Source of the DNA: Verrucomicrobiia bacterium
GTDB taxonomy: Bacteria > Chloroflexota > Dormibacteria > Dormibacterales > Dormibacteraceae
DNA length: 64,000 bases
Direction of reading: 5' to 3'
Assembly: GCA_035637495.1 (NCBI GenBank)
Contig: DASPXA010000053.1
Span: 694-64,693, forward strand
This document shows, in pieces, positions 2,959-32,556 of the stretch. Numbering within the stretch: position 1 is the stretch's first letter; each line of letters opens with the position of its first letter. Under the pieces are notes generated by a model. It did no database searches. It saw nothing but the letters and a program-made list of their open reading frames with translations, and was not told the origin of the DNA. A program made the translations under genes and the position numbers.

Positions 2959-2979
2959 CCGCGCTAAGTTAAGGCCCCG

Positions 2980-7305: not shown

Positions 7306-7379
7306 TCGACGGAACTCTAATTGTTCCTTAAACTTCGGGCGTACTCGTCCGGTTTGTAGTGCGTTTGGGGGAGGCGCCT

Positions 7380-13056: not shown

Positions 13057-15293
13057 AGGGTGATGTCGTGCGGGCGGACGGGCACGCGGTCGATCTGACG
13101 CCCGGTCGCGGCTCGGATCGCGGCCACGATGGCCGGACCCGACGAGATGGTGGGCGGCTCCCCCACCCCCTTCAAGCCGTACGGCGAGTTGGGGTCGCCC
13201 AGCTCGAGGATGTCCATCCGTACCGGAGGCATGTCGAGGATGGTCGGCAGCAGGTAGTCCGTGAACGACGGGTTGCGGATGACCCCATCCTTGACCTGGA
13301 TCTCCTCCATGACGGCCAGGCCGAGTCCCTGCGCCGCGCCGCCTTCGAGCTGGCCCTGCACGGCAAGCGGATTGATCGCCTTGCCCACGTCCTGCGCCGT
13401 GGCGAGCTCCACCACCTTGAGCAAGCCGAGCTCGGTGTCGACGTCGACCACGGCGCGGTGCGCGGCAAAGGCGAACTGCATGTGCGCATCGGCCTGGCCG
13501 GTCTCGGCATCAAGGCGGTGGGTCTGGCGGGGGCGGAAGACCCGGGTCTCTTCGATCACGGCGTCGCCCAGCAGCGTGGCCAGGGACACGATCTCCTTGC
13601 CGCTTGCGTCCACCACCGCGTCATCCTCGAGCCGAAGGCCGCCGGCCCGGTGAAGCTCCGATTCCGCAAGCTCCAGGACACGCTTGCGCACGGCCTCCGA
13701 CGCAGCCTTGACGGCGCCGCCGGTGATGTACGTCTGTCTCGACGCCGACGACGAGCCGGCAGAGCCGACGTTCGTGTCGGCGGTCAGGACCACGATGTCG
13801 TCGACGCCAAGCTCCGTGCCCGCGACCTGGGCCTGGACCATGACGCTGCCCTGCCCCACCTCCGCCGCCGCGGTGTGGACTTCGACCCGAGGCCGGCCCT
13901 CAACGACCGACAGGCGCACCCTCGCGGTCGAGTAATCCTCGAAACCCTCGGAATAGCCGATGTTCTTGAAGCCGACCGCGAAGCCGACCCCTCTTTTCAC
14001 GCCCTCACCATGCGTCGTGTTTGACACCCCACCAGGCATTGACGTCAGGTGCTTGTCGGCGGCGGGCGGCATCGGCATCGCGCGCACGCGCTGCAGCAGC
14101 TCGGCCACGGGAACCGGGCCGTCGACGACCTGGCCGGTGATCATCTCGCTGCCAGTCTCCAACGCGTTGCGGAGGCGCAGCTCCACCGGGTCCATGCCCA
14201 TCGCGGCGGCGAGCTTGTCCATCTGCGCCTCGTGCGCGTAGCAGTTCTGCACCGAGCCGAAGCCACGCATCGCGCCGCATGGCGGGTTGTTGCTGTAGAC
14301 GACGATGCCGTCGATCGTCGCGTTGGGACACCGGTACGGCCCAACCGAGAAGCACGTGGCATTGGCGATCACCGCGGTCGAGCTCGACGCGTACGCGCCG
14401 CCGTCGAGAAGGATGCGAGCCCGGACGTAGACGAGCTTGCCGTCTCGGTTGGCGCCGTGCTCGTAGGTCAGCTTGCCCGGGTGGCGGTGCACGTGGCCGA
14501 CGAAAGACTCCGTTCGGGAGTAGGAGATTTTCACCGGCCGGCCGGTCTTCAGCGCGAGCATGCATGCGTGGGCCTGCATCGAGAGGTCCTCGCGCGCGCC
14601 GAACGCGCCGCCGATGCCGGCCATGGTGAGCCGCACCTTCTCCCTGGGCAGGGCGAGCACGCTCGCCAGCTGCTCCTGGTCGACGTGCAGCCACTGCGTC
14701 GCGATGTGGAGGTCGATGCCACCCTCGCCGTCCGGGATCGCGAGCCCGGACTCGGGGCCGAGCGGGGCCTGGTCCTGCATCCCGATCTCGTACTCGCCCT
14801 TCACCACGACGTTGGCGCGTGCCGCCTGGTCGCCGTGACGGATCTTCACGTGGCGCGTGACGTTGCCGTCGGGATGGAGCCGCGGCGCCTCGGGAGACAG
14901 CGCCTGCTCGGGGTCAGTGACCGGTCGCAGCACCTCGTATTCGACGTGGACTTTCTCGGCGGCCCGCCTCGCCTGCTCTGGATGGTCTGCGGCCACCAGG
15001 GCGACGGCCTCGCCCCAGTAGCGCACGACATCGAAGGCGAGGACGGGCTGGTCCTGGATCTCGAGGCCGTACAGCTTGCGCCCCGGCACATCGACGTGCG
15101 TGAGAACTGCCCGCACGCCGGGCATGGCGCGCGCTTCCTCGGTGTCGATCGTGATGATCCGTGCATAGGGGTGCGGGCTGCGCACGGTGGCGCCCCACAG
15201 CATGCCTTCGACGCGCAGGTCGGAGGAATAGACGAAGCCCCCGCGTACCTTGGGCACGCCGTCCGGCCGGCGGACGCTCTCACCGACCTTCAT
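13053..15293 (-). CDS. xanthine dehydrogenase, molybdopterin-binding large subunit
   Basis: Start at MKVGESVRRPDGVPKVRGGFVYSSD... (internal ATG 15293; ATGA overlap with the Fe-S subunit). XDH/CoxL family motifs throughout. Confidence 0.85.
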   Translation of the reverse strand: MKVGESVRRPDGVPKVRGGFVYSSDLRVEGMLWGATVRSPHPYARIITIDTEEARAMPGVRAVLTHVDVPGRKLYGLEIQDQPVLAFDVVRYWGEAVALVAADHPEQARRAAEKVHVEYEVLRPVTDPEQALSPEAPRLHPDGNVTRHVKIRHGDQAARANVVVKGEYEIGMQDQAPLGPESGLAIPDGEGGIDLHIATQWLHVDQEQLASVLALPREKVRLTMAGIGGAFGAREDLSMQAHACMLALKTGRPVKISYSRTESFVGHVHRHPGKLTYEHGANRDGKLVYVRARILLDGGAYASSSTAVIANATCFSVGPYRCPNATIDGIVVYSNNPPCGAMRGFGSVQNCYAHEAQMDKLAAAMGMDPVELRLRNALETGSEMITGQVVDGPVPVAELLQRVRAMPMPPAADKHLTSMPGGVSNTTHGEGVKRGVGFAVGFKNIGYSEGFEDYSTARVRLSVVEGRPRVEVHTAAAEVGQGSVMVQAQVAGTELGVDDIVVLTADTNVGSAGSSSASRQTYITGGAVKAASEAVRKRVLELAESELHRAGGLRLEDDAVVDASGKEIVSLATLLGDAVIEETRVFRPRQTHRLDAETGQADAHMQFAFAAHRAVVDVDTELGLLKVVELATAQDVGKAINPLAVQGQLEGGAAQGLGLAVMEEIQVKDGVIRNPSFTDYLLPTILDMPPVRMDILELGDPNSPYGLKGVGEPPTISSGPAIVAAIRAATGRQIDRVPVRPHDITL

Positions 15294-15733
15294 CGGGCCG
15301 CCATGCGCACAGCGTCGAGGATCTTCGCGTAGCCGGTGCAGCGGCAGATGTTGCCGGCGAGCGCCTCGCGAATCTGCGCGTCGTCGGGTTGCGGGATGCG
15401 CTGCAGCAGGTCGTGGGTCGCGACGACCAGGCCTGGCGTGCAGAAGCCACACTGCACAGCGCCGGCTTCGACGAACGCCTGCTGAACTCTCGCGCCGTCG
15501 AGACCTTCGATGGTCACTACCTCACGGCCGTTCGCCTGCCCTCCCAGCACCAGGCACGCGCAGACCAGCGTTCCGTCGAGGTAGACCGAGCACGATCCGC
15601 ACTCGCCCTGCTCGCATGCGTTTTTCGAGCCGTAAAGGCCGAACCTCTCGCGCAGCACGTACAGAAGGCTCTCGCCCTCCCAGACCCCTTCGGCGCCGCG
15701 AGGCTCGCCGTTGACCACGCAGCTGACCTTCAT
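15290..15733 (-). CDS. xanthine dehydrogenase (2Fe-2S)-binding small subunit
   Basis: Start MKVSCVVNGEPRG... ...CEQGECGSCSV... and ...GFCTPG...CRCTGY... 2Fe-2S motifs. ATGA overlaps on both sides. Confidence 0.85.
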   Translation of the reverse strand: MKVSCVVNGEPRGAEGVWEGESLLYVLRERFGLYGSKNACEQGECGSCSVYLDGTLVCACLVLGGQANGREVVTIEGLDGARVQQAFVEAGAVQCGFCTPGLVVATHDLLQRIPQPDDAQIREALAGNICRCTGYAKILDAVRMAAR

Positions 15734-16578
15734 CTCGCGGCCCAGGCCCACTCGAGACACCGGCGCGCCAGCACCGCCAGCGCGTGGCGGCGATAAGCGG
15801 CCGTCCCGCGCACGTCGTCGATCGGCCTTGCCGCCGACGCGACCAGCTCGCCGAAACGACTCAACGTGGCATCGCTCAAGGGCCTGCGGCGCTCCCAGTC
15901 GAGCTCGCCCTGGATGAACTTCTCCGCCGCTGCCGCGCGCATCGGGGTTGGGCCCGCGGAGCCGATGCCGGTGCCGACCCTCATGTGAGCGGGATCGATC
16001 GACAGCGCAAACGAGCACACGGCGATGACCATCGCGTTGCGAGTCCCAACCTTCGAGAACTGCTGCGGCCCGCGCGCGGGCTGCACGATGAAGGCGGCGA
16101 TGAGCTCGTCCTTCCGCATCGCATTGCGTTTGGGACCGGTGAAGAACTCACCGACGTGCACGTGGCGAGTCCCGGATTTGGAAGCGAGCTCGACCCACGC
16201 GTCCGACGCGAGGAGGGGCGGATGGGCATCACCCGCGGGAGATGCCGTGCCGAGGTTGCCGCCGACCGTGCCTCGGTTGCGGATCTGCGGCGAGCCAACA
16301 GTCCGGGACGCCATCGCCAGGCCCGGCAGCCGGTCGCCAAGCTCGTCGATGAGGCGCGTGTAGGTCACGCCGGCGCCGATTCGCAGGATGCCGTCGGACG
16401 GTCCCCACTCCGTGAGCTCGCGAATCCGGGTGAGATCGAGGATGGTCGCCGGACGCCGGTGGTCGAGGTTGATCTCGACCATGACGTCGGTTCCGCCGGC
16501 GATCGGAGTCGCTTCCGGGTGGGCGGCCTTCATGTCGAGCGCCTCGGACCAGGTGGCCGGCTGAAGGAATTCCATCAC
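15730..16578 (-). CDS. xanthine dehydrogenase FAD-binding medium subunit
   Basis: 282 aa, CoxM/XdhB-like FAD-binding (...AGGTDVMVEINLDHRRP...). ATGA overlap with the uricase stop. Confidence 0.85.
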   Translation of the reverse strand: MMEFLQPATWSEALDMKAAHPEATPIAGGTDVMVEINLDHRRPATILDLTRIRELTEWGPSDGILRIGAGVTYTRLIDELGDRLPGLAMASRTVGSPQIRNRGTVGGNLGTASPAGDAHPPLLASDAWVELASKSGTRHVHVGEFFTGPKRNAMRKDELIAAFIVQPARGPQQFSKVGTRNAMVIAVCSFALSIDPAHMRVGTGIGSAGPTPMRAAAAEKFIQGELDWERRRPLSDATLSRFGELVASAARPIDDVRGTAAYRRHALAVLARRCLEWAWAAR

Positions 16579-17761: not shown

Positions 17762-17770
17762 CCGTGTCCA

Positions 17771-17798
17771 TGAGAGGAAACCAGACGGTTTCCTCTCA
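17771..17798. promoter_or_regulatory. perfect 12-4-12 inverted repeat TGAGAGGAAACC-AGAC-GGTTTCCTCTCA, 9 nt upstream of the uraH start codon
   Basis: Read directly. Lies in the 127-bp uraD-uraH intergenic region. No U-tract follows on either strand. Confidence 0.5.
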
Positions 17799-17888
17799 CG
17801 CTCCCCAGAGGGGCCCCCGGCAGGAAGCCGACCGTGCGGCTTCGCCGCAGGGCAAGCGCCGCTGCTCTCCTTCCCTTGATCGTCTTTG

Positions 17889-20043: not shown

Positions 20044-20076
20044 CCAGTGTGCGTCGATGACGGAGACTTTAGCGAC

Positions 20077-22338
20077 ATGACGGGGCTGATCGGGCAGAGC
20101 ATCAGGCGGCTCGAGGACCCACGTCTCCTGCGGGGCGAGGGCAGGTTCGCGGACGACCTGGAGACGCAGCTCTACGTGGGCCTCGTGCGAAGCCCCATGG
20201 CGAGCGGATTCCTCTCGGGCGTGGACACTTCCTCCGCCCGCACGCTGCCGGACGTGCTCGAGATTTTCACCGCGAGCGACCTTGCCCGGTCTTGCTCGCC
20301 GCTCGGTGTTCACATCACCACGCCTGGCGCCATCTGCCCGCCGCGGCCGATCCTCGCCGCGGATCGGGTCAGGTTTGCCGGCGAGATGATCGCGGCGGTC
20401 GTCGTGGGAAGCCGATACGTGGTGGCCGACGCCGTCGAGCTCGTCCAACCTGACATCGATCCACTGCCGGCGGTCGTGACGTTCGCGGACGCGCTGGCCG
20501 AAGGCGCGCCGCTGGTCCATGACGAGGTGCCGGGCAACGTCTATTTCCTCGGCCGCCGCACCTATGGCGACCCTCCCGCGGCCTTCGAGCACGCCGACCT
20601 CGTGGTCGAGGCGGAGGTAACTCATCCCCGCGTGGCCGCCGCGCCCATCGAAACGCGGGGCGTGGTCGCCGCGCCGGAAGACGGCGGCGTGGCGGTCTGG
20701 ACGTCCACGCAGGTCCCACACCTGGTCGCCGACGCGATCGCGGAGTGCCTTCAAATCGAGCGCAGGAGCGTGCGCGTGGTGGCGACCGATGTCGGCGGTG
20801 GATTCGGGGTCAAGGCTCAGGTCTATCCCGAGGAGATCCTGCTCGCCTGGATCGCGCGCCGAATGAACGCCCGCGTGAAATGGATCGAGACTCGCTCGGA
20901 GCACATGCTGTCCGCGAGCCACGCGCGCGACCAGCGCGTCCATTTCTCCGCGGCGGTGCGGAAGGACGGCCGCGTCCTCGCCATCAAGGCGACGATCCAC
21001 TCGAGCATCGGCGCCTACGGCGTCCGCCCCTTCGGCCCACTGCTCGACCCCCTGGGAACGGCGAGCCTCATCCCGGGCCCGTATGACGTTCGAGACTACG
21101 AGTACGCGACCTACGCGGTCGCCACCAACAAGTCGCCCGAGGGCCCTTACCGCGGGGTCGGCATGGTTACGGCCGTCCTGGTGCACGAGCGCCTGATGGA
21201 CCTCGTCGCCGGCAGGCTGGCCCTGGATCCGGCCGACGTGCGCCGCCTCAACTTCGTGAAAGCAGAGCAGATGCCGTACACGACGGTGACCAAACACCCT
21301 TACGAGTCGGGTGACTACGCATCAGCGCTCAATCGCGTGGGGTACGAGGCGCTTCGCACCGAGAGGGCGAGCGCGCGTGCCGAGGGCCGGCTCGTCGGCC
21401 TCGGATTGAGCTCCTACGTCGAATACACGGGCGCCGGATCGTCGACGTTCGAGCGCCGCGGCATGCTGGACATTCCCGGCAGCGACACGGCACGCGCCTG
21501 GCTCGCCGAGGATGGACGCGTGCACCTCCAGACGAGCTGTCCCGCGGTGGGCCAGGGCTCGCATACAACTCTCGCCCAGGTCGCGGCGGCGAACCTCGGG
21601 GTCGACGCTGAGAGCATCGTCGTCGAACAGACGAATACGGGCCGCGTCGGCGGCGGCACCGGTTCATTCATGAGCCGGGGCTCGGTGACCGGCGCCACCA
21701 CCGCTTTTCGGGCAGCCGGACTTCTACGTGAAGCAATCCTCGAAGCCGCTTCCGACCGGCTGGGCCAGCCGATCCACCGCCTGTCGATCGATGCCGGGAC
21801 GGTCATCGTCGAAGGCGCCCCGGCGCGGCTGGCGCTTTCGCAGCTTGCGGCAGACAACGCGGACCTCGATGTGTCGGTGGCGTACGACCCTGTTCAGGCG
21901 TCGCACCCATACGCAACTCACGCCTGCCTGGTCGAGCTCGATCGCGAAACCGGCGCGGTCCAGGTCCTCCGCTACGTGGTGGTCGAGGACTGCGGCGTGC
22001 TGATCAATCCGCTGATCGTCGAGGGACAGGTCACAGGCGGCGTGGCCCAGGCTGCCGGTGCGGCGCTCCTGGAAGAGGTCGTGTATGGACCTGACGGCGA
22101 GCCGCGTACGGCCACGTTCCTCGATTACATGATCCCGAGCATCAGCGAGGCCGTGCCGATCTCGATCGAGCACCTGGTCACGCCGTCGACCGTGCACGAG
22201 CTGGGCACCAAGGGCGCCGGGGAGGGCGGCACCATCGGAGGCACCGCGGCGATCGCCAACGCCGTCGCCGACGCGCTCTCCGTCTCCGACCTCGTGCTCC
22301 CGCTCACGCCGGACCGCATCGTCGCGTTGATGCGTTGA
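20077..22338 (+). CDS. xanthine dehydrogenase-family molybdopterin-binding subunit (CoxL / aldehyde oxidoreductase-like), without cognate small or medium subunits in its own operon
   Basis: Start MTGLIGQSIRRLEDPRLLRGEGRFADDL... (753 aa). CoxL-type motifs (...GGGFGVK..., ...SRGSV...). Confidence 0.85.
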   Translation: MTGLIGQSIRRLEDPRLLRGEGRFADDLETQLYVGLVRSPMASGFLSGVDTSSARTLPDVLEIFTASDLARSCSPLGVHITTPGAICPPRPILAADRVRFAGEMIAAVVVGSRYVVADAVELVQPDIDPLPAVVTFADALAEGAPLVHDEVPGNVYFLGRRTYGDPPAAFEHADLVVEAEVTHPRVAAAPIETRGVVAAPEDGGVAVWTSTQVPHLVADAIAECLQIERRSVRVVATDVGGGFGVKAQVYPEEILLAWIARRMNARVKWIETRSEHMLSASHARDQRVHFSAAVRKDGRVLAIKATIHSSIGAYGVRPFGPLLDPLGTASLIPGPYDVRDYEYATYAVATNKSPEGPYRGVGMVTAVLVHERLMDLVAGRLALDPADVRRLNFVKAEQMPYTTVTKHPYESGDYASALNRVGYEALRTERASARAEGRLVGLGLSSYVEYTGAGSSTFERRGMLDIPGSDTARAWLAEDGRVHLQTSCPAVGQGSHTTLAQVAAANLGVDAESIVVEQTNTGRVGGGTGSFMSRGSVTGATTAFRAAGLLREAILEAASDRLGQPIHRLSIDAGTVIVEGAPARLALSQLAADNADLDVSVAYDPVQASHPYATHACLVELDRETGAVQVLRYVVVEDCGVLINPLIVEGQVTGGVAQAAGAALLEEVVYGPDGEPRTATFLDYMIPSISEAVPISIEHLVTPSTVHELGTKGAGEGGTIGGTAAIANAVADALSVSDLVLPLTPDRIVALMR

Positions 22339-23714
22339 GCGAGCCCACGCCCTACCGACCGCTCAGCTACCTGGAGTGGAACGCCGCCCGCCGCGGCTCG
22401 AGCCCGGCGATCTGGGAGGCAGGTGATGAGATCACCTTCGAGGAGCTGCTCGAGCACGTCCGTCGGTTGCGGAAGCTGCTCGAGGCCAGTGGTGTTCGCG
22501 CGGGCGACGTCGTCGGCGTGCAGCTGCCCAACGTCTGGCAGTACGTCGCTCTCGAGCTGGCGATTCCGGACCTCGGCGCGGTGATCCTGCCGCTGCCGCT
22601 CAGCCTCGGCGAGCACGAGCTGGGCTGGGTGAAAGAGAAAGCGAGGCCGGTCGTGGTGATCCGCGAACCGTTGCCCGAGCCGGCCGACGGCCTGCCTGAG
22701 CCGACGCCTGCCGAGCCGGATCCCGCCCGGATCGTCGAGATCGCGCTCACCTCCGGCACGACAGGCATGCCCAAGCTCGCGTCGCTTTCGGCGCGCTTGA
22801 AGCAGGTCACTTTCGAAGGGTTCACGGGCCGCCTCGGCATCGCCGAGAACGACCGCGTCCTCCCCATGACGCCTCTCAGCCAGGGCATCGGCGGCATGTG
22901 CCTTTACTGTCTGCGCCTCGGCGCGACCCTGGTGATGCTCCACGAGCCGCACTGGACTCCCGATCACTGCCTCGCCACCGCGCGTGATGCGCGGGCCAGC
23001 GTCCTGGTCGGTGTGCCGACCAACGTGATCCGGATGCTCCATCACGAGATCGCTCTGCCGAACGCGCGAGCGGTCGCGGTGGCGGGGGCGCCACTGCCGC
23101 CGGAGGTCGCCGAGCGCTGGGAGACCACGACCGGAATCGCCATCACGAGCTTCTACGGTTCGATGGACGCGGGACAGCTCGCCGTCGCCCGCCCGTCCGA
23201 CCCTCGAGACAAGCGCTGGGCCACGGTCGGCAAGCCACACGACCGAGCCGAATGGAAGATCGCGGACGGCGAGATCTGCATGCGGGGCGAGCTGGTCCAG
23301 GACCGGTATTGGGGCGAGGCCTTCGGTCCTCACGCGGCCGACGGCTGGGCGCATATGGGCGACCTCGGCTTCGTCGACGACGACGGATATCTGCACGTCG
23401 TCGGCAGGGTCAAGGACATCATCATTCGCGGGGGAGCCAACATCAATCCGTACGAGGTGGAGTCGATGATGAGGACCCATCCCGCGGTCCGTGACGTGTG
23501 CGTCGTCGGACGCCCGCATCCCGAGCTGGGCGAGGTGCCTGTCGCCTTCATCGTCGGCGAGGTCGACGGGGATGAGGTGAAGCGGTTCCTGATGGAGCGT
23601 GGCCTGGCTCACTACAAGTGGCCGGAGGCGGTGTACATCGTGCGCGAGCTTCCCCTTTCCGGCCCCGGCAAGGTCGACCGCAAGGCGCTTCGAGAGCATG
23701 CTGGCGCGGTGTAA
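22335..23714 (+). CDS. AMP-dependent synthetase/ligase (acyl/aryl-CoA ligase)
   Basis: TTG start overlapping the previous stop (TTGA). ...LTSGTTGMPKLA... AMP-binding motif and ...GELPLSGPGKVDRKAL... C-terminal motif. Confidence 0.85.
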   Translation: MSEPTPYRPLSYLEWNAARRGSSPAIWEAGDEITFEELLEHVRRLRKLLEASGVRAGDVVGVQLPNVWQYVALELAIPDLGAVILPLPLSLGEHELGWVKEKARPVVVIREPLPEPADGLPEPTPAEPDPARIVEIALTSGTTGMPKLASLSARLKQVTFEGFTGRLGIAENDRVLPMTPLSQGIGGMCLYCLRLGATLVMLHEPHWTPDHCLATARDARASVLVGVPTNVIRMLHHEIALPNARAVAVAGAPLPPEVAERWETTTGIAITSFYGSMDAGQLAVARPSDPRDKRWATVGKPHDRAEWKIADGEICMRGELVQDRYWGEAFGPHAADGWAHMGDLGFVDDDGYLHVVGRVKDIIIRGGANINPYEVESMMRTHPAVRDVCVVGRPHPELGEVPVAFIVGEVDGDEVKRFLMERGLAHYKWPEAVYIVRELPLSGPGKVDRKALREHAGAV

Positions 23715-24489
23715 CGACATCGACGTTGCGTGGTTCGAAGCCGGCCGCGGCGAGCCGCTCATCCTGGTCCACGGCCTTGCCGACGACCATCGCGCGTGGC
23801 GCCGTGCACTGGCGGACCTGGTCTTGCGCCACCGCGTGATCCTTTACGACCTGCGGGGCCACGGCCAGACCAGCCTGGGCAAACCCGACTGCTCGCTGCG
23901 CCAGCTCGGTGACGACCTGGTCGCGTTGATGGACGTCCTCGACCTCCGACGCGCCAACGTGGCCGGTTTTTCGCTGGGCGGCACGATCGCCATGCGGCTA
24001 GGGATCGACCATCCAGAGCGCGTCCGAGGGCTAGCGCTGGTGGCGACGTCCAGTCGGGTCGGACGCGCCGCCGCCGACTGGTATCGGGAGCGCGTGGCGT
24101 TGGTCGAAACTTCAGATGCCCGGCTGAGGGAGACCCTCGACCGCGATACCGCGGACGTCTACACGCAGTCGCCGGACGAGCTCGCGGAGGGCTTGCTGAT
24201 CCGCCGCCAGTCGACCTCCGACCCACGTGGCTACGGCAACGCCTGTGCTGCGATGGCAGGGCTGAACGCCGCACCGCTCGACCCGGAGCTGCCGAAGATC
24301 AGCGCTCCGGCCCTGATCGTTGCGTCCGATCTCGACCGCCACTGCCCTCCGAAGGCGGCCGAGATGATCGCCGCCCGGATCGAAGGGAGCCGGCTCGAGA
24401 TCATCGAGGGCGCCGGTCATGCGATCCCGGTCGAGAAACCACACGAGCTGGCCGCGCTGATCAACATCTTCCTGGACGAAATTGCCTGA
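23698..24489 (+). CDS. alpha/beta hydrolase
   Basis: Start MLARCNDIDVAWFEAGRGEPLILVHGL...; ...GFSLGG... nucleophile elbow. 17-nt overlap with the ligase. Confidence 0.8.
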   Translation: MLARCNDIDVAWFEAGRGEPLILVHGLADDHRAWRRALADLVLRHRVILYDLRGHGQTSLGKPDCSLRQLGDDLVALMDVLDLRRANVAGFSLGGTIAMRLGIDHPERVRGLALVATSSRVGRAAADWYRERVALVETSDARLRETLDRDTADVYTQSPDELAEGLLIRRQSTSDPRGYGNACAAMAGLNAAPLDPELPKISAPALIVASDLDRHCPPKAAEMIAARIEGSRLEIIEGAGHAIPVEKPHELAALINIFLDEIA

Positions 24490-25240
24490 GACGCTGCTCC
24501 ACGAGTGGGGCGAGCACGAGGTTCTCACTCTCACGCTGAACAGACCCCAACGCCGCAACGCGGTCGATCCCGAGTTGCTTACCGCGCTGGCCGAGGCGCT
24601 GCGAACAGAGGGCGACCGTGCGCGGGCGGTGATCCTGCGTGGCGCTGGCGACGAGGCATTTTCGGCCGGGTACGACCTCTCGCGCCTCACGGGCACCGCC
24701 GGCGACCTCGATGCCGACGGTGTGATCGGCCGGGCTGCGGACGCCCTGCGGGCGTGCCCCGCCCCGGTGATCGCACGCCTGCATGGCCACTGTCACGGCG
24801 CCGGGGTCGAGCTGGCGATGAACTGCGACCTGCGAATCGCGTCGCCCGACCTTCGCATGTCGGTGCCCGCGGTCGGGCTCGGGGTGGTCTATCGATATCC
24901 GTTCCTCGCCCGCCTCGTGCAGACCTGCGGTCTCGCGCGCACCGCCGACCTGTTGCTTGCGATGCCAGAGCTCGACGGCGCGCGAGCGCATGAGTGGGGC
25001 CTGGTGACCGAGCTCGTGCCCGCCGCGGAGATCGACGCCAGGATCGAGAAGCTGGCCAGGCGCCTCGCCACCTCGCCGCGCGCCGCGCTGCGCGGGACCA
25101 AGGCGAGCCTGAACCTCCTCGCATCGCGAGGACTCTTCGCCGACGACCTCGAGCTGGCGCAGCGGCTGCGCGCGGAGGCTGCAGCCAGCCCCGAGCGCCA
25201 GGAGGCGCTCCGGCGCCGCCAGAAAAAAGTCACCGAATGA
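24482..25240 (+). CDS. enoyl-CoA hydratase/isomerase (crotonase family)
   Basis: 252 aa. ...AVILRGAGDEAFSAGYDL..., ...GHCHGAGVELAMNCDLRIA... Confidence 0.85.
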   Translation: MPETLLHEWGEHEVLTLTLNRPQRRNAVDPELLTALAEALRTEGDRARAVILRGAGDEAFSAGYDLSRLTGTAGDLDADGVIGRAADALRACPAPVIARLHGHCHGAGVELAMNCDLRIASPDLRMSVPAVGLGVVYRYPFLARLVQTCGLARTADLLLAMPELDGARAHEWGLVTELVPAAEIDARIEKLARRLATSPRAALRGTKASLNLLASRGLFADDLELAQRLRAEAAASPERQEALRRRQKKVTE

Positions 25241-26151
25241 ACGGATACGACGTGAGCGTCGGCATCAGCCCACGTCAGTCGTTCGACAGCTGGGCCTCGT
25301 TCATGGCGGGCCTCGAGGCGGAGGGCGTGCGCCGGGCATGGGTGATCGATTCGCAGCTTGCGATGAAGGACGTCTACGCGGGCCTTGTCGTGGCGGCCCT
25401 CAACACGACGCGGATCGGCCTCGGCACCGGGGTCACCAACGCGGTGACGCGGCACCCGACGGTCACTGCCAACGCGATCGCGGCCGTGGCGGAGATCTCC
25501 CATGGGCGCGCGATCCTTGGCGTCGGCGCCGGCGACTCGGCTCTGTACGGCATCGGCCTGCAGCCGCAGAAGGTGGCCGAGGTCGAAGAGGCGATCGCAT
25601 TCTTCCGTTCGCACCTGGAACGGAGCATCCCCATCTACCTGGCGGTGAGCCAGGAGCGGATGTGCCGGCTGGCCGGCCGCACTGCCGACGGCGCGATCGT
25701 GATGGGACCCGCGCAGCAGGACATGGTGCGGCGCCAGGTGGACTGGATAAGGTCAGGCGCCCCAAGCAGCGACTTCGAAATCGCTTTCATCGCCCCGACG
25801 TCCACCGACATCGAGGACGTTCGTTCGTGGGCTTCGACGCAGGCAAGGTTGATGTCGCACCACAAGGAGCTGCCGGAGAGCCTGGTCCCGTTTCGCGACG
25901 AGATCACGCGGAGCGCCGAGTCCTACGACTACTCAGAGCACCTTTCGACGAGAGCCGAGCACAGCGCCGTGGTATCCGACAGCCTGGTGCGCAAGCTGGG
26001 AGTCGTTGGAACGGCTGACGAATGTGCCGCTCGCTTGGGCGAGCTGCGCGCTTGCGGCATCGACACATTCATCTTTCCACTCGCGGGGCGCAACCGCATC
26101 GAGCGTTGGAAACGGATCCGGGACGAGATCCTCGATCAGACCATCGTGTAG
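25237..26151 (+). CDS. LLM-class flavin-dependent oxidoreductase (luciferase-like monooxygenase family)
   Basis: Start MNGYDVSVGISPRQ..., ATGA overlap with the crotonase. ...GVGAGDSALYGIGLQP... LLM motif. Confidence 0.8.
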   Translation: MNGYDVSVGISPRQSFDSWASFMAGLEAEGVRRAWVIDSQLAMKDVYAGLVVAALNTTRIGLGTGVTNAVTRHPTVTANAIAAVAEISHGRAILGVGAGDSALYGIGLQPQKVAEVEEAIAFFRSHLERSIPIYLAVSQERMCRLAGRTADGAIVMGPAQQDMVRRQVDWIRSGAPSSDFEIAFIAPTSTDIEDVRSWASTQARLMSHHKELPESLVPFRDEITRSAESYDYSEHLSTRAEHSAVVSDSLVRKLGVVGTADECAARLGELRACGIDTFIFPLAGRNRIERWKRIRDEILDQTIV

Positions 26152-26918
26152 CCGCCGCTGACCGACAGCGTCTGGCCCGTGATGTACGAAGCCCGGTCAG
26201 AGGCCAGCAGCAGCACCGCCGGCACCACGTCTTCGGGCTTGCCGAGCCGGCGCAGCGGATACGAGCGAGCCGCCTTCTCGCGGATCTCGGCCGTGAACAT
26301 CTTCGCCTGGTCGCTCGACCAGATCGACTCGCTGCCCGAGGTCTCGGGGTCGCCAGGGATCAGGCCGGGAGACACCACGTTCAGCGTGATGCCGTGCTTG
26401 CCAACCTCACGCGCAATCGCCTTCGACATCGCGATCACGGCGGCCTTGGTGCCGCTGTAGACAGCCTCACGCCACTCCCCCATCCGTCCCGCGTCCGATC
26501 CGATCGAGACGACGCGACCGTGGCGCCGCTCGATCATGGGGTCGAGTACCGCGCGCACGCAGTTGATGAAGCCCCACATGTCGATCGCGATCTCGCGCTC
26601 CCACTCCTCACGCGGCTTTTCTGTGAACAACCGGTCGATCGTCCATCCCGCGCAGTTGACCAGCACGTCGACGCCGCCCATCGAGCTCCTGACGAACTGC
26701 ACCATGGACGACACCGACTCCCAGTCGGTGACGTCGGTGTGCCGCGCCACGATCGTTCCCGACGGTGCTTCGGCCTCGACCTTCCTGGCCTGACGGTCGT
26801 CCACGTCAGCGATCACCACCCGCGCGCCCTCGGCCGCAAAGCCGAGCGTGATCGCGCGGCCGAGGTTGGACGCGCCGCCGGTGACGATGACCACGCGACC
26901 GGTGAGACCCAGGTCCAT
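26136..26918 (-). CDS. SDR family short-chain dehydrogenase/reductase
   Basis: Start MDLGLTGRVVIVTGGASNLGRAI... (TGxxxGxG). Catalytic ...YSGTKAA... Its start overlaps the stop of the sortase-fusion gene. Confidence 0.85.
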   Translation of the reverse strand: MDLGLTGRVVIVTGGASNLGRAITLGFAAEGARVVIADVDDRQARKVEAEAPSGTIVARHTDVTDWESVSSMVQFVRSSMGGVDVLVNCAGWTIDRLFTEKPREEWEREIAIDMWGFINCVRAVLDPMIERRHGRVVSIGSDAGRMGEWREAVYSGTKAAVIAMSKAIAREVGKHGITLNVVSPGLIPGDPETSGSESIWSSDQAKMFTAEIREKAARSYPLRRLGKPEDVVPAVLLLASDRASYITGQTLSVSGGYTMV

Positions 26919-29083
26919 CAGGCCGCGGGCACCGCCGTGACGATCAATCGCTCGCCGTACGTTGCCTGGCTCCGGTCCCATGCACCCGCGCATGTGATCA
27001 GCGAAAGGCGCGCGGGACCGGTCTGGGCAAAGACGCCCGGTGGATGGGCCTCGAGTGGCAGCGACTCCGAGGCCGCCACCTGAAACTCGACTGTGCGCCC
27101 GTCGGGCCAGATCACGAGGATCGCGTCGCCAGGGCGCAGGAGCCGAAGGTCTTTGAACACTCCCGGTTGTCGCGGCACGCCGAGGTGACCCGCGAGCACC
27201 GCATCGCCGGGCTGCCCTGGGGACGGACCTTGATTGAACCAACCGACTGATTCGAGGTTGCCCGGTGACGCCATGGCCCCATGCTCGTCCAGACCGACCC
27301 TGTCGATCGGCGCCTCGACCCCGATGCGAGGTATCACGAGGCGCCACCCCGCCGCCTTCGGTTGAAGCGAAGGGACCTGCGGCGGCTGCGCGGCAACCGA
27401 CGGCGCCGCGCTCGTCTGAGAATCTCTTTCGCCGTGGCCATGGTCAACAAGCGCCTCGGCCGTCGCTGGTGACGAAGGCATCCGGTCGACGGCCGGACTG
27501 GAGCCTGCAACCACGCCGGCAATCAGGAGCACCGCCACGGCCCTGCTGCGCCGCCATGCCAGCGACAGCAAAAGAGCCGCTATGAGGAGAAGCGGCCCCA
27601 GCGGCGCCGGCCGGTCGGGCGGCGGCCTCGGGAAGGCGCCGGTGTTGGGCAAGCCTGGCGGAGCCGAGATGATGAAGCACTCGGTCGTTGCGTTGGTGTG
27701 GCTCGCGGGCGCGTAGATCCCGGTGCTCGCCGCATCGGGGGCGTAGACGGTCCTCCAGCAGTACTTCCCCGCGGCGGTGGTCGCCGTCGTGGGGTCAGAC
27801 GTGGCGACGCCCGCCACGAGCGGCTTGGCAGCGCCGACCTGTGCCCCGCCGGTCGGGCATCCTGCCGGAGTCACCAGGGCCGGACCGCACAGGACGAACG
27901 CGACGCTCCCGGTCGGCGCAAGGCCGGCACCGCCATTGCCGGCGGTGACGGTGTCTGTCGCCGAGGCGCCCATTGGAACCGCAGTCCCGGAGGGGACGCT
28001 CGTGCTGGTCAGGGCAGGTGTTCTGCAGGAGTGAAAGTCGATCGGCCCCGCAAAGTCCTTGAGGATCGACGTGAACGACTGCGCGGTTCGCGTGTGCGGC
28101 AGGAACGTGTTGAAGCAGCCGGCAAAGGGAATGCCCTGCAGGTCGACTCCACCCTCCAGCAGGTCGTTCGTGGAAACGGTCGTCGAGTTGCCGGCGATCT
28201 GGTCGCGGCAGACCCAGCCCCCGCACGGAATGTTTGCCGAGTTCACCGTTAGAGCCGCAAAAGCAGGAGCCGGATTGAGCTCGTAGTGCTCAGGCCCACC
28301 GGCGGGGTTGCAGATCGTCCCATCGGGCGGTTGCGGACCGGGGTCGGCGGCGCAGTGCCACTGATAGATGGAGAAGCCGGCAAGGCTTCCGCCATTGGTG
28401 AAGTCGACCGCGACCAGCAGGTCACCCTCACTCCGGTTCCCGGTGAAGGCGCCGCTGCAGCCTGCTGTGAGCACGACCGTGCTCTGGAGGAACTCGAAAT
28501 CCATGTGGCTGTCTCCGTTGTTGACCAGTCGCTCAGCGCCGAAGTACAGCTCCGGATGCCCATCGACCCGGGTGTGGCTCACGGCGTAGACGTTGCTGAG
28601 GTCGGTCTTGGCGGGGACGGGACCGGGGCTGAAGCTGTAGGAAGAGATCGCATCGCCGTTCTTCCCGCCGTTCAGCGTGGTGGGATCGTTGGCCCCACAG
28701 GGCGTCGTGTCTCCTGAGATGGGATCGGCGATGAAAACCGCGGAGATGATGCTTGGATCGGCCGCGGCTGCGGGCGTCAGGGTCGGCGCGATCGGCGGAG
28801 CGGAGCCCGCGGCCGGCCGTCCGCAATTGAAGATGCCCCCCGTTCCGCCAAGGTCTACCGCGCCGGCAGGGCACGTGCCGGTTGGTCCGGCGAGTCCGGA
28901 GTTGGCCCAGTCGTAAGTTGCCCCGCTTGCGGGGTTGAAACGGATCAGCCCATCGATGGCGAGCCAGCCCGAAGGTGCGCCCAGCACCTGGAGGGCTGTT
29001 GCCCCGATGCCAAGAAAGGCAATGGTCGCCGAGAGCGCAACTCTGACCCGGCGACCGGTCTTGGGCTGGTGTGGGGTGGCCAA
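26918..29083 (-). CDS. single-ORF fusion: signal peptide, then a Cys-rich extracellular domain (~480 aa), then an LPNTG sorting signal, hydrophobic helix and RRSR, then a second TM helix, linker, and a sortase catalytic domain (TLxTC active site)
   Basis: 721 aa, TTG start (MATPHQPKTGRRVRVALSATIAFLGIGATALQVLGAPSG...). ...ISAPPGLPNTGAFPRPPPDRPAPLGPLLLIAALLLSLAWRRSRAVAVLLIAGVVAGSS..., then ...VLAGHLGVPRQPGVFKDLRLLRPGDAILVIWPDGRTVEF...ARLSLITCAGAW..., a sortase fold. No stop codon lies between the two parts. Confidence 0.75.
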   Translation of the reverse strand: MATPHQPKTGRRVRVALSATIAFLGIGATALQVLGAPSGWLAIDGLIRFNPASGATYDWANSGLAGPTGTCPAGAVDLGGTGGIFNCGRPAAGSAPPIAPTLTPAAAADPSIISAVFIADPISGDTTPCGANDPTTLNGGKNGDAISSYSFSPGPVPAKTDLSNVYAVSHTRVDGHPELYFGAERLVNNGDSHMDFEFLQSTVVLTAGCSGAFTGNRSEGDLLVAVDFTNGGSLAGFSIYQWHCAADPGPQPPDGTICNPAGGPEHYELNPAPAFAALTVNSANIPCGGWVCRDQIAGNSTTVSTNDLLEGGVDLQGIPFAGCFNTFLPHTRTAQSFTSILKDFAGPIDFHSCRTPALTSTSVPSGTAVPMGASATDTVTAGNGGAGLAPTGSVAFVLCGPALVTPAGCPTGGAQVGAAKPLVAGVATSDPTTATTAAGKYCWRTVYAPDAASTGIYAPASHTNATTECFIISAPPGLPNTGAFPRPPPDRPAPLGPLLLIAALLLSLAWRRSRAVAVLLIAGVVAGSSPAVDRMPSSPATAEALVDHGHGERDSQTSAAPSVAAQPPQVPSLQPKAAGWRLVIPRIGVEAPIDRVGLDEHGAMASPGNLESVGWFNQGPSPGQPGDAVLAGHLGVPRQPGVFKDLRLLRPGDAILVIWPDGRTVEFQVAASESLPLEAHPPGVFAQTGPARLSLITCAGAWDRSQATYGERLIVTAVPAA

Positions 29084-29371: not shown

Positions 29372-30502
29372 TCAACTTCTCTGGACTACGCGAACCGGCT
29401 CCGGAAACAGCTCGACGATCTCGGCCGGCATGGGGAGGCCGAGCTCGTCCAGCTTGTCGAGCACGCGGGGGCGGATCCCGGTCGGTGAGAAGCGCCCCAT
29501 GACCCGACCATTGGCATCCATCCCGGTGCGAATGAACTTGAAGACCTCTTGCATCGTGATCACGTCCTCTTCCATCCCCGTCAGCTCGCTGATCTGGGCC
29601 ACCTTGCGCGTTCCGTCGCGCAGCCGCTCGAGATGGACGACGACGTTGATCGCGCTCGTGACCTGGGCGCGGATGGCGCGCACCGGCAGGTCGTAGCCCG
29701 CCATCAAGACGAGCGTCTCGATCCTGGACAGAGCGTCCCGCGGCCTGTTCGCGTGCAAGGTGGTCATCGAGCCGTCGTGACCGGTGTTCATCGCCTGAAG
29801 CATGTCCAGCGCCTCAGGGCCTCTTACCTCGCCGACCACCAGCCGGTCCGGCCGCATGCGCAGTGACGAGATCACCAGGTCGCGGATCGTGATCTCCTTG
29901 CCTTCCGGGCCTCCAGGCCGCGACTCGAGTCGCGCCACATGTCGCTGGCGAAGCTGAAGCTCGGCGGCGTCCTCGATCGTCACGATTCGCTCGTCGGTCG
30001 GGATGTAGCCCGACAGCACGTTCAGCAGCGTGGTCTTGCCGCTGCCCGTGCCGCCGCTGACAACGATGTTGGCCCTCGCCATGACGCACGCCTTGAGGAA
30101 GCCGAAGGCCGAATCGCTGCAGCTGCCGAGGCGGATCAGGTCCGCCATCTCGAGCGGCCCGCGCTGAAAGCGGCGGATGTTGAGCATCGGGCCATCGACC
30201 GCCACGGGCGGTATGGCGACGTGCACGCGGGAGCCGTCGCTCAAGCGGGCGTCGCAGAGGGGCGATGCTGCGTCGACGTGGCGGCCCACCGATTCGACGA
30301 TGTGGTGGATCACCGCCATCAGCTCTTCTGCGCTGGAGAAGCTGATCGGGGTCAGCAGGATCTTGCCGTCGACCTCGACGTAGATGTCGCGCGGGCCGAC
30401 CACCATGATCTCGGTCACCTGCGGGCTGTGCAGCAGCGGGGCGAGCGGCCCAAGCATGGAGTAGTCGGACGGAAGGACAGGCTGCGCTTGTGCTGTGCTC
30501 AT
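29372..30502 (-). CDS. CpaF/TadA-family secretion ATPase (short paralog, ~376 aa)
   Basis: Start MSTAQAQPVLPSDY... Walker A ...VVSGGTGSGKTTLLN..., ...VGEVRGPEALDMLQAMNTGHDGSMTTLHAN... Confidence 0.85.
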   Translation of the reverse strand: MSTAQAQPVLPSDYSMLGPLAPLLHSPQVTEIMVVGPRDIYVEVDGKILLTPISFSSAEELMAVIHHIVESVGRHVDAASPLCDARLSDGSRVHVAIPPVAVDGPMLNIRRFQRGPLEMADLIRLGSCSDSAFGFLKACVMARANIVVSGGTGSGKTTLLNVLSGYIPTDERIVTIEDAAELQLRQRHVARLESRPGGPEGKEITIRDLVISSLRMRPDRLVVGEVRGPEALDMLQAMNTGHDGSMTTLHANRPRDALSRIETLVLMAGYDLPVRAIRAQVTSAINVVVHLERLRDGTRKVAQISELTGMEEDVITMQEVFKFIRTGMDANGRVMGRFSPTGIRPRVLDKLDELGLPMPAEIVELFPEPVRVVQRS

Positions 30503-32556
30503 TGGATCAACCTCACAGCGGACGGAAACGCCCGCAAAGTAGGATCGGCGGTGATCGACACGGCGCCATTGCCGGTGATGGTCGCGGTCCAGGCGATAAC
30601 GCCTCCGGCGATCGTCGCCTGGTACGAGTTGCTGCCGTTGATCTGGACGTTCGCCGCGGGGAAGTAGACGATTCCGATCAGGCTCGTGAAGCCGTTGCCG
30701 TTGATGGTGTTGGAGCATGTGTTGGGCGTGGCGGACTGAATCGGTCCGGGCTCGAAGATCAGCGTCCTGCCGTACTGGTACCCGCTGAACAGGTAGCTGT
30801 CCGCCCCACCGTGAAGGTCGACGCATCCACCGCTGGGTAGGTAGAAAACCACCGCCCCTGGCGTCCATGCCGACGGGCACGCGGTGTTGTTGCCGAGAGT
30901 GGTGGTAACGCAGTGGCCCTCGTTGGCCAGGTCGCCCTGCGGCGGCACCCCCGACGCAGGGTTGGTGTTCGGCAGAGTGCTCGCGAGAGGCAGACGCTGC
31001 GTGTCCGGCGGTGACTGGCCGGAAAGGCAGTTGTTGATGGTCACACTCGAGCTTCCCCCGCTGCCAACGTTCGTGCAGTAGGTCAGTCCCGTGCAGGTGC
31101 TGTTCTGGGCCAGGTAGACGAAGTAGTCCTGCGCGCCGGGGACGCTCGTCACCGACACCCGGATGTTTCCACTGCTCGCCAACGTCACGGTCCTGCACAT
31201 CGAGGGCGCGCTCTCGCGCAGGTAGCACGTCGATGCAACTGGACCACTGCAGGTGGCCACGCCGTTGGGTTCCCACCGCACGGCCGTCACCTCGACCGAG
31301 TACGTGCCCGACGAGAGTCCGCTGGAGCCGAGGGCAGTGAGGCTGAACGAGCTGCCACACCCTACCCCGTTCATGTCCCAGAACTGGTGAAGCGCCCGCG
31401 CCATGGTGACGACGATCGTTCCGCCGGCAAGCGTGCCGCTCACGGCCTGGGCGGCCACTGGAATCGACGTCGCGTTCAGGGCAGCGCCCGCCGAGGTCAC
31501 GGTGAATGCCTGGTCGTTAAGGCGCACGATCGAGTTCGCAGGCACCGCAACCGTGAGGGCGGTCACCGGAATCGACGTGATCGTGCCCATCAGCGCGGCG
31601 GTGGTCGCGGTCAGGTTGGGCTCGTCCGGCGGTCGCAGCTCGTTGCTGGTGAATCCGCCCAACTGGGTGTACCCGGCGGTGAAGTTGTAGACGCCGCCGC
31701 CCAGGAAGTAGCAGCCGGCGCCGCCGCCCAGGTGCGGGTCCGAGTTGTACGTGCCGGCCAGCTCCACGCTGCCGCTCGACGACGCCCACGAACGAGACGT
31801 CGTGTCAATTGGCGGTGTCGGGTATCCCGGATCGGGAGAGTTCAGGCCGTTGACCTGGGCGCCGGTGACCGTCCACTTCGGCGTCGTGAGCGGGTTTGGC
31901 GGCGCCGGGCAGATGTCGATGACGTTGCCATTGACGGTGCCGCCGGCCGAACCGCTCTGCTCGAAGATGTTGCCGTTCGACCAGATGTCGCCGACGACGG
32001 TCGTCGTCGAGTTGCCCTGGAAGATGAGAGAGCTGCCGCCGCTCGGGCAGCCGTAGGGCGCCAGCGTCTGGATGGCTGCGCCGTTCGTGCCGGCCCTGCG
32101 TGCCACCGCGGTTGCGGTGGCGCCGACGTTCATGGCCCCCGCTCCCAGCACTCGCATGATCGTGACCGGGATCTGATGGGCCGCGGTGGCCGTGAACGTC
32201 GTCCCGGCAATCGAACGGTTGGCGACGGTCAGGATCAGCACCTGGTTGCTCGGGTCGCCGAAGGTACACGTGACGTTCGCGGTTCCGTAGCCTGAGCAGG
32301 TCGGTGGGGTGTAGAGTCGCTGGTTGTTCGCGAACTGGGTGGTGGCCGCCTGCTCCGCCAGGATGTAGCTCGTGTTGTTCATGTAGTTGTAGGCCGCAGC
32401 GAGCGCCGCGGCGTCAACCGCCCCCTGCATGCCGCGCCGGTCGAGGTATCCGCGTCCTCCATCCACGGCCAGGCCGAGGAAGCCGAACAGCGCGACCAGG
32501 ATCAGCGCGACGAGAACGATTGCCTGGCCTTTCTGAGCACGAAGACCGGCGGTCAT
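30499..32556 (-). CDS. TadG-like pilus-assembly protein (686 aa), N-terminal TadE/G-like pseudopilin segment plus a large Gly/Thr/Cys-rich extracellular region
   Basis: Start MTAGLRAQKGQAIVLVALILVALFGFLGLAVDGGRGYLDRRGMQGAVDAAALAAA..., a TadE/G-like N-terminal domain. The start overlaps the TadE stop. Confidence 0.8.
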   Translation of the reverse strand: MTAGLRAQKGQAIVLVALILVALFGFLGLAVDGGRGYLDRRGMQGAVDAAALAAAYNYMNNTSYILAEQAATTQFANNQRLYTPPTCSGYGTANVTCTFGDPSNQVLILTVANRSIAGTTFTATAAHQIPVTIMRVLGAGAMNVGATATAVARRAGTNGAAIQTLAPYGCPSGGSSLIFQGNSTTTVVGDIWSNGNIFEQSGSAGGTVNGNVIDICPAPPNPLTTPKWTVTGAQVNGLNSPDPGYPTPPIDTTSRSWASSSGSVELAGTYNSDPHLGGGAGCYFLGGGVYNFTAGYTQLGGFTSNELRPPDEPNLTATTAALMGTITSIPVTALTVAVPANSIVRLNDQAFTVTSAGAALNATSIPVAAQAVSGTLAGGTIVVTMARALHQFWDMNGVGCGSSFSLTALGSSGLSSGTYSVEVTAVRWEPNGVATCSGPVASTCYLRESAPSMCRTVTLASSGNIRVSVTSVPGAQDYFVYLAQNSTCTGLTYCTNVGSGGSSSVTINNCLSGQSPPDTQRLPLASTLPNTNPASGVPPQGDLANEGHCVTTTLGNNTACPSAWTPGAVVFYLPSGGCVDLHGGADSYLFSGYQYGRTLIFEPGPIQSATPNTCSNTINGNGFTSLIGIVYFPAANVQINGSNSYQATIAGGVIAWTATITGNGAVSITADPTLRAFPSAVRLIQ

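Follow-up and report, generated by a model that had tools for sequence, protein, structure and literature searches.

The locus considered here lies in a 64-kb window (the whole stretch of DNA analysed, ~67% G+C) from a Dormibacteraceae contig, in which five open reading frames (ORFs) with coding-type G+C content at third codon positions (GC3) follow one another on the plus strand from position 20077 to 26151. The first encodes a CoxL-like, molybdenum-binding large (L) subunit of the xanthine oxidoreductase (XOR) family (20077–22338, 753 aa; Pfam Ald_Xan_dh_C, MoCoBD_1 and MoCoBD_2). It is followed by an AMP-forming acyl-CoA ligase (22335–23714, 459 aa; AMP-binding), which starts at a TTG codon within a 4-nt TTGA overlap with the L gene, a serine alpha/beta hydrolase (23698–24489; Abhydrolase_1) overlapping the ligase by 17 nt, a crotonase of the enoyl-CoA hydratase (ECH) fold (24482–25240; ECH_1) overlapping the hydrolase by 8 nt, and a luciferase-like protein (LLM; 25237–26151; Bac_luciferase), joined to the crotonase by an ATGA overlap. 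On the opposite strand, a convergent short-chain dehydrogenase/reductase (SDR; 26136–26918, minus strand, 260 aa; adh_short) overlaps the 3′ end of the LLM gene by 16 nt. The gene set, order and overlaps of the five plus-strand genes had been given in a preliminary description of this DNA and were confirmed by the ORF calls, the Pfam domains and the junctions, which were read directly from the window sequence. The earlier limit of five genes, however, proved too narrow: in the related loci L001, L002, L083 and others an SDR gene is likewise found at this place and overlaps the LLM gene to the same extent, with a variable gene beyond it, and the SDR is counted here as the sixth cassette gene. 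For the L gene, the conserved ATG at 20077, preceded by a GGAG Shine-Dalgarno sequence, is a better start than the public call of a 99% identical homologue (P0001, 782 aa), which begins 29 codons upstream, within the adenine deaminase gene. The start of that divergent neighbour was itself refined to ATG 20043 on the minus strand.

Database searches with the L subunit returned many metagenomic homologues at 65–73% identity in addition to the one at 99%. Among species-representative genomes, all matches at 57–73% identity were metagenome-assembled genomes (MAGs) of Candidatus Dormibacterota, among them MAGs from soil that had been deposited under the name ‘Chloroflexi bacterium CF_n’. Identity then falls to 36–43% for the next relatives, of which those in other phyla stand in ordinary FeS-L-FAD operons. 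The gene content of the cassette and its tight overlaps are kept in >30 loci at 65–78% protein identity. The arrangement is far beyond chance: gene order is unchanged and the overlaps are near-identical in at least 12 loci from genomes or metagenomes, and the arrangement returns in 20 further metagenome loci anchored on the neighbouring xanthine dehydrogenase gene pucD. The operon is thus real, conserved, restricted to one phylum and previously uncharacterised, and it is unusual in two respects, namely the constitutive lack of electron-transfer subunits of its own and the fusion, in some lineages, of L and ligase. A literature search found nothing relevant on this type of cluster, on subunit sharing by orphan CoxL proteins, or on xanthine dehydrogenase (XDH) or F420 in Dormibacterota.

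The three Pfam domains of the L subunit score 55, 249 and 220 bits (Ald_Xan_dh_C, MoCoBD_1 and MoCoBD_2, respectively), each above its gathering cutoff, and the protein falls below every NCBIfam equivalog cutoff. Its top NCBIfam scores are those of the glyceraldehyde dehydrogenase alpha subunit (541 bits, cutoff 790) and group 5 carbon monoxide dehydrogenase (524 bits, cutoff 950), with the form I CoxL model TIGR02416 reaching 434 bits (cutoff 991) and TIGR03194, the alpha subunit HcrA of 4-hydroxybenzoyl-CoA reductase, 354 bits, well under its cutoff of 995. Solved structures give a clearer ranking, led by QorL (445 bits), followed by CoxL of M. smegmatis (425) and O. carboxidovorans (364), KdhL (355), 4zoh (307) and HcrA (1rm6, 232), while all chains of XDH and aldehyde oxidase score 131 bits or less. 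Over 742 aligned residues the protein shares 38.8% identity with QorL (PDB 1t3q) and is not regarded as a QorL orthologue, since this value lies below 40%. The active-site loop reads EGPYRGVGM, compared with IGAYRGVGF in QorL and AYRCSFR in form I CoxL; the copper-binding Cys of the AYXCSFR loop is absent, so that both the loop and the score place the protein outside form I CoxL. The molybdenum-site Gln (WTSTQVPH, aligned with WTATQMPS of QorL) and the catalytic Glu (GTKGAGEGG, aligned with GIKGMGESA) are kept, and both are invariant across alignment A1. An inspection of these residues had been proposed in the preliminary description, and because Gln, Glu and a QorL-type loop are all retained, the subunit looks catalytically competent, as a Qor/CoxL-II-type hydroxylase that is neither an XDH nor a carbon monoxide dehydrogenase.

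The position of the gene inside a nucleobase island encoding adenine, 8-oxoguanine and cytosine deaminases, uricase and allantoinase could be taken to mean that this L subunit is a second purine or xanthine hydroxylase isozyme with unrelated CoA genes downstream. Such a reading appears highly improbable in view of the identity of 27% between L and the PucD protein of the window, and of the scores of the XDH models, which range from 191 to 343 bits against cutoffs of 780–916 (pucD 269 against 784, XdhA 343 against 780, xdhB 191 against 850), compared with 434–541 bits for the glyceraldehyde and carbon monoxide dehydrogenase models, none of them at cutoff. It would also leave unexplained the 4-nt overlap with the ligase gene and the true gene fusions between the two. 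Three protein clusters at 90% identity (P0022, P0029 and P0034, comprising 20, 9 and 29 sequences, respectively) consist of in-frame L::ligase fusions 1215–1230 aa long, with L as the N-terminal and the ligase as the C-terminal part, and all three share the same junction, in which ...PDRIAQLTR is followed directly by PYDPMSYLEWN. For two of these clusters source contigs were located, in different samples and in both cases beside the same XDH and urate-pathway genes; locus L083 carries the full downstream cassette, and the contig of L084 ends just after the fusion gene. The fusions show that L and ligase act together, which bears out the operon link originally proposed from the overlap, although the order of the two reactions is not fixed by the fusion.

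XOR-family molybdenum hydroxylases are normally described as fixed units of a large, a medium FAD-binding (M) and a small [2Fe-2S] (S) subunit. No gene for an Fe-S or FAD subunit is present within the cassette operon, neither here nor at any of the orthologous loci, and the lack of own S and M genes, pointed out for this one genome before, is thereby a fixed trait of the whole orphan-L clade. The 64-kb window holds a single Fer2_2 gene (15290–15733, minus strand; start refined to ATG 15733, 147 aa) and a single FAD_binding_5 gene (15730–16578, minus strand; FAD_binding_5 and CO_deh_flav_C), and tblastn within the window revealed no other Fe-S or FAD subunit gene. These two proposed shared partners belong to a PucD-type XDH operon, the L subunit of which (13053–15293, minus strand; TIGR03196 pucD, 842 bits, cutoff 784) is their bona fide partner. 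The operon forms part of a nucleobase catabolic island at 1.6–20 kb with a xanthine/uracil permease, an NCS1 permease, a phosphoribosyltransferase, and allantoate amidohydrolase (509 bits), allantoinase (411) and adenine deaminase (588), these three above cutoff, together with uricase, 5-hydroxyisourate (HIU) hydrolase and 2-oxo-4-hydroxy-4-carboxy-5-ureidoimidazoline (OHCU) decarboxylase. The 3′ end of pucD is overlapped by 4 nt (13053–13056) by an 8-oxoguanine deaminase gene (11728–13056, minus strand; 603 bits, cutoff 532), which looks co-transcribed with pucD and is kept at the same position in all related islands.

The orthologous loci fall into two subgroups. In subgroup A (L at 64–73% identity), a purine operon containing the S, M and L genes of XDH is divergent from the L-ligase-hydrolase-crotonase-LLM operon, with the SDR convergent. 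In subgroup B (L at 60–64%), the orphan L is instead divergent from a GntR-L′-FAD-FeS-Amidohydro_2-CMD operon, in which the L′ paralogue is 36–38% identical to the L subunit of the window; distant alpha/beta-hydrolase, AMP-ligase and SDR genes lie in the neighbourhood, and the crotonase of L023 is 58% identical to that of the window. Subgroup-B loci include L016 (3981–9911) and L023 (9159–17051), with a regulator of the GntR/UTRA type and with genes for a major facilitator superfamily (MFS) transporter, a NUDIX protein, a DUF1989 protein and an ABC transporter close by. Every orphan-L orthologue with enough flanking sequence therefore adjoins a complete S/M/L set, either the XDH operon (A) or L′-FAD-FeS (B). 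This is consistent with the earlier suggestion that the orphan L borrows the S and M subunits of its neighbour, and we infer such sharing in subgroup A. The preliminary description had reasoned that dedicated S and M genes beside a paralogue elsewhere, together with an L subunit placed inside plain XDHs, would speak against its proposal; S and M genes beside a paralogue do occur in subgroup B, yet they lie next to the orphan L rather than elsewhere, and the L subunit stands outside plain XDHs.

Metagenome contigs anchored on PucD provided 30 loci with >7 kb upstream of pucD, in 20 of which the cassette L gene and the purine operon are divergently oriented (PucD ~81–88% identical to that of the window), whereas the other 10, with PucD at 77–81% identity, lack the cassette within the available flanks. 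In two further PucD-anchored loci the cassette lies downstream in the same island. The cassette is accordingly accessory to the nucleobase island and outside the core urate pathway, and its linkage is specific to a sub-lineage, because a third of the related purine islands do without it; the islands that do carry it nevertheless keep it together with the XDH operon. A purine-ring-derived substrate, one of the options considered at the outset, is not required, given that purine islands without the cassette exist.

These cassette-free islands also count in favour of an alternative in which the S and M subunits are not shared with XDH at all, the orphan L using an L′-FAD-FeS-type or other CoxSM-type set from elsewhere in the genome and its position beside the purine operon being inherited synteny of no mechanistic significance. 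Such a set, more closely related and different from that of XDH, stands beside the orphan L of subgroup B, and further FeS-L-FAD sets are present in Dormibacterota (L054). Against this, the cassette adjoins the XDH operon in all 20 cassette-bearing PucD-anchored loci and in all subgroup-A genome loci, the adjacency survives rearrangement in L002/L138 and L162, and the control region between the two operons is nearly invariant. In the rearranged island of L002, for example, an NCS1 nucleobase-type permease gene stands directly upstream of L, and the XDH operon is still in the island. We regard supply from elsewhere as somewhat unlikely, and the CoA-dependent pathway itself may still hold under it.

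The intergenic region in question comprises only 33 non-coding nucleotides between the divergent adenine deaminase and L genes (20044–20076) and includes the GGAG Shine-Dalgarno sequence for L. The sequence CCAGTGTGCGTCGATGACGGAGACTTTAGCG is nearly invariant in seven of eight aligned loci (the window, L001, L003, L006, L007, L014 and L022), at which the proteins are only ~70% identical, and this conservation suggests a shared control element for the cassette and the XDH/purine operon. Scans for Rfam families, tRNAs, consensus promoters and terminators in and around the operon were all negative. As 33 nt are too short for two conventional promoters, the promoters must sit inside the flanking coding regions, or else the element would be an operator.

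A possible origin of the orphan L is provided by operons of other phyla. In locus L026 of Acidobacteriota (9938–16489) and L028 of Anaerolineales (769–7105), two tandem L genes are combined with one FAD and one Fe-S gene in the order L1-L2-(CoxG)-FAD-FeS, CoxG being present in L026. Further products of the L026 operon are a nucleoside hydrolase, a CN hydrolase, a cyclase-type amidohydrolase, a VOC protein and an SDR. These uncharacterised operons, with two L genes per one M and one S gene, are homologous to the subgroup-B arrangement; they differ from the cassette in having no ligase, crotonase or LLM. In a tree of L subunits built by a crude method (neighbour-joining on Kimura-corrected distances, 736 alignment columns, 300 bootstraps), the orphan-L clade received 100% bootstrap, as did the grouping of subgroup-B L′ with L2 of both L026 and L028. 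The orphan clade, the first L of both operons and three actinobacterial L subunits were united at a moderate 71%, and the sister pairing of L1 and the orphan L itself obtained only 35%. The best matches of the subgroup-B FAD subunit outside Dormibacterota are the FAD subunits of L028 and L026. From the groupings of L′ with L2 and of the orphan L with L1, one S/M pair per two L genes appears ancestral for the lineage. In the simplest reading, the ancestor was a system with a single S/M pair serving two L subunits; its L1 would have given rise to the orphan L and, in subgroup A, would have been re-sited beside the S and M genes of XDH.

The remaining members of the cassette could be assigned at the family level. 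The ligase is a short enzyme of the ANL superfamily, with full-length PDB alignments only to chains of the feruloyl-CoA synthetase type (8weu/8wev) and the MenE type. Other top matches are 6qjz and 4fuq, and oxalyl- and malonyl-CoA synthetases are among them; the NCBIfam model of cyclohexanecarboxylate-CoA ligase reaches 176 bits, far below cutoff. Its core motifs TSGTTGMPK and GPGKV are conserved among orthologues. An exhaustive HMMER search with the ligase gave nearest clusters at 66, 53 and 47% identity, then generic ligases and modules of non-ribosomal peptide synthetases, and it yielded neither a functional lead nor additional fusion architectures. The hydrolase best resembles 3-oxoadipate enol-lactonase, PcaD, both among solved structures (2xua, 94 bits) and among NCBIfam models, which remain below cutoff (PcaDC, 180 bits; PcaD, TIGR02427, 157 bits against 256), and the nucleophile motif GFSLGG (GxSxG) and the histidine of GHxIP are conserved in 13 orthologues.

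The crotonase matches several NCBIfam models, including oxepin-CoA hydrolase and methylmalonyl-CoA decarboxylase, all below cutoff. The motif GHCHG..VEL...SVPA(V/I) is conserved in 13 of 13 orthologues, and within it the first catalytic Glu is present (GAGVEL), whereas the second position is Ala (SVPAV) throughout; these positions presumably correspond to E144 and E164 of the rat ECH. Of the former designation as an enoyl-CoA hydratase, the fold therefore stands (ECH_1) and the reaction is in doubt, as a crotonase-fold enzyme without the second catalytic Glu is probably not a plain hydratase. The LLM had been described as a monooxygenase, and here the assignment probably has to be changed: 18 of its 19 NCBIfam matches are F420-dependent LLM families with Mer on top, and its PDB matches are F420-dependent Mer and Fgd only, so that the protein is probably a Mer-like, F420-dependent oxidoreductase with a predicted cofactor. 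The best NCBIfam match of the SDR, also below cutoff, is BadH, a 2-hydroxycyclohexanecarboxyl-CoA dehydrogenase (220 bits).

Several of these similarities can be combined in a different way, in which L oxidises an aldehyde to the acid, the ligase activates this acid, and crotonase, SDR and a thioesterase-like hydrolase carry out steps resembling beta-oxidation. Candidate substrates would be aldehydes from nucleobase breakdown, for example malonate or methylmalonate semialdehyde. The order L-then-ligase fits the N-to-C order of the fusion, the top NCBIfam score of L is the 541 bits for glyceraldehyde dehydrogenase, oxalyl- and malonyl-CoA synthetases are neighbours of the ligase in the PDB, and the crotonase has the sub-cutoff match to methylmalonyl-CoA decarboxylase. 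The island further contains two genes for cytosine-deaminase-like amidohydrolases (2968–4212, plus strand, and 6019–7377, minus strand; one above cutoff at 504 bits and one below at 329), and no uracil-degradation pathway of the Rut, reductive or barbiturase type was recognised among its annotated genes. However, the 541 bits lie well under the family cutoff of 790, the glyceraldehyde-oxidoreductase-like structure 4zoh ranks below QorL, CoxL and KdhL, the active-site loop is QorL-like, and the enol-lactonase-like hydrolase and the F420-type LLM would have no obvious role. An aldehyde-first route is consequently judged unlikely.

Four established pathways were also considered and set aside. For menaquinone biosynthesis (MenE/MenH/MenB), the MenE and MenH models score 182 bits against a cutoff of 330 and 80 against 209, and the crotonase is not MenB-like. 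For the Rut pathway, with its RutA LLM and RutD hydrolase, RutD reaches 78 bits against a cutoff of 238 and RutA gives no match. An oxidative pyrimidine route via uracil dehydrogenase and barbiturase found no barbiturase candidate among the annotated genes around the cassette and no gene-level link in the literature, and it is kept only as part of the aldehyde/malonate alternative. Feruloyl-CoA hydratase/lyase chemistry is at variance with a crotonase that keeps the wrong Glu and has no match to the HCHL family.

Among characterised systems, the furoyl-CoA (Hmf/Trudgill) pathway appears to be the closest functional analogue, and the likeness does not establish membership in either Hmf or the Bad/Ali group discussed below. 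The Trudgill pathway proceeds through a ligase, a molybdenum dehydrogenase with the CoA ester as its substrate, a lactone hydrolysis and a thioesterase, in this order, and the lactone-hydrolysis step is described without an assigned enzyme (PMC3223595). The same work takes at least ~40–54% similarity to HmfA, HmfD and HmfE as the mark of Hmf membership (PMC3223595). Like the cassette, the Hmf operons of Cupriavidus basilensis and Pseudomonas putida place an acyl-CoA ligase gene beside an XOR-family L gene and a crotonase-family gene. They include their own FAD and Fe-S subunits (hmfB and hmfC), of which the cassette has none, and it thus falls outside the three-subunit Hmf cluster; in turn, the PcaD-like hydrolase, the F420-type LLM, the BadH-like SDR, the L::ligase fusion of some lineages and the nucleobase island set the cassette apart from Hmf. 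The Hmf-like logic invoked in the preliminary description is strengthened by the enol-lactonase-like hydrolase.

Could the cassette nonetheless encode a true 2-furoate pathway? The ligase would then be a furoyl-CoA synthetase, L a furoyl-CoA dehydrogenase, the PcaD-like protein the lactone hydrolase and the crotonase an HmfE-like 2-oxoglutaryl-CoA hydrolase, with SDR and LLM oxidising furfuryl alcohol or furfural and the position beside XDH serving only the supply of S and M subunits. All six gene products are given a role in this scheme, and the closest relative of the hydrolase with a solved structure has a 5-oxo-dihydrofuran enol-lactone as its substrate, a match for the step that lacks an enzyme in the published pathway (PMC3223595). 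It is nevertheless quite improbable: tblastn of L against plasmids found only relatives with <40% identity and generic annotation, those of Cupriavidus and Paraburkholderia included, the L026 operon and subgroup B stand amid genes for the breakdown of nitrogen compounds (nucleoside hydrolase, CN hydrolase, amidohydrolases, DUF1989), and the permease directly upstream of L in L002 is of the NCS1 nucleobase type.

Two other systems illuminate parts of the cassette. Qor (QorMSL, 1t3q), the best solved relative of the L subunit, shares with it the AYRGVG-type loop, the conserved Gln and the catalytic Glu; in contrast, its M and S subunits have genes of their own, its substrate is a free heterocycle and no CoA chemistry is involved. 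The Bad/Ali route of Rhodopseudomonas palustris (AliA, BadK, BadH and BadI) has in common with the cassette a ligase, a crotonase-fold enzyme, a BadH-like SDR and the hydrolytic ring opening of a CoA ester, whereas it includes neither a molybdenum hydroxylase nor an F420 enzyme, and the cassette proteins score far below the respective equivalog cutoffs. Ring opening is due to the BadI-type crotonase in Bad/Ali, while an alpha/beta hydrolase is proposed for this step in the cassette.

Taken together, the reading we favour, tentatively and with somewhat less than even confidence, is that of a Dormibacterota-specific six-gene cassette that would degrade a heterocyclic carboxylate via CoA thioesters, with S and M subunits shared with XDH. 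The substrate is probably a heterocyclic carboxylic acid of the N-heterocyclic and nucleobase-related class. Briefly, the short ANL ligase would form the acyl-CoA, and the Qor-like L subunit, which is translationally coupled to the ligase and in some lineages covalently fused with it, would hydroxylate the ring at a C-H adjacent to the heteroatom, either at the thioester stage or immediately ahead of activation. To this end, L would assemble with the [2Fe-2S] and FAD subunits of the divergent XDH operon, which would then serve two different L subunits, and electrons would leave L through these borrowed subunits. The F420-type LLM may reduce a lactone- or lactam-like ring product, the atypical crotonase may contribute isomerisation, hydration or thioester chemistry, the BadH-like SDR may oxidise a hydroxyacyl-CoA, and the PcaD-like serine hydrolase is proposed to open the ring hydrolytically.

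Several findings weigh against this scheme, among them the cassette-free purine islands described above. The FAD and Fe-S subunits of XDH are only 26–33% and 43–49% identical, respectively, to the S/M set beside the orphan L in subgroup B, and owing to this divergence a pairing with the XDH subunits would need re-adaptation; the other S-L-M sets of Dormibacterota, such as that of L054, could be the real donors. Moreover, all cassette proteins stay below the curated NCBIfam cutoffs, so that every step is assigned from similarity at the level of families. A bolder version, in which one [2Fe-2S]/FAD module is time-shared by PucD and an unrelated Qor-like L, the latter in a physical complex with an acyl-CoA ligase (one polypeptide in some lineages), and in which both features jointly define a new, CoA-dependent way for Dormibacterota to break down nucleobases or N-heterocycles, is doubtful.

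If correct, a conserved L subunit that lacks partners, always lies beside the S and M genes of another enzyme and derives from operons with two L genes per S/M pair would provide a clear example from nature of electron-transfer subunits shared in a modular way. To our knowledge, very few substrates have so far been linked to a molybdenum hydroxylase and CoA chemistry acting on the same molecule, examples being furoyl-CoA and 4-hydroxybenzoyl-CoA, and the L::acyl-CoA-ligase fusion is unusually direct genomic evidence for such a combination. The cassette further suggests that Dormibacterota, a phylum abundant in soil and seen here only through MAGs, have a catabolic capacity not yet assigned, and its six genes offer a concrete, clonable target for substrate finding.

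Two minor features of the surroundings may be added. Directly upstream of the SDR gene lies a gene for a sortase-domain protein (26918–29083, minus strand), the stop of which overlaps the SDR start, followed by a gene for a T2SSE-type secretion ATPase (29372–31360, minus strand); neither is kept beside the cassette in other loci. Inside the purine operon, the OHCU decarboxylase and HIU hydrolase genes are separated by a 127-nt gap (17762–17888) with a perfect 11-bp inverted repeat, GAGAGGAAACC-AGAC-GGTTTCCTCTC, at 17772–17797. Gap and hairpin are specific to the present genome, because the same two genes overlap in L001.

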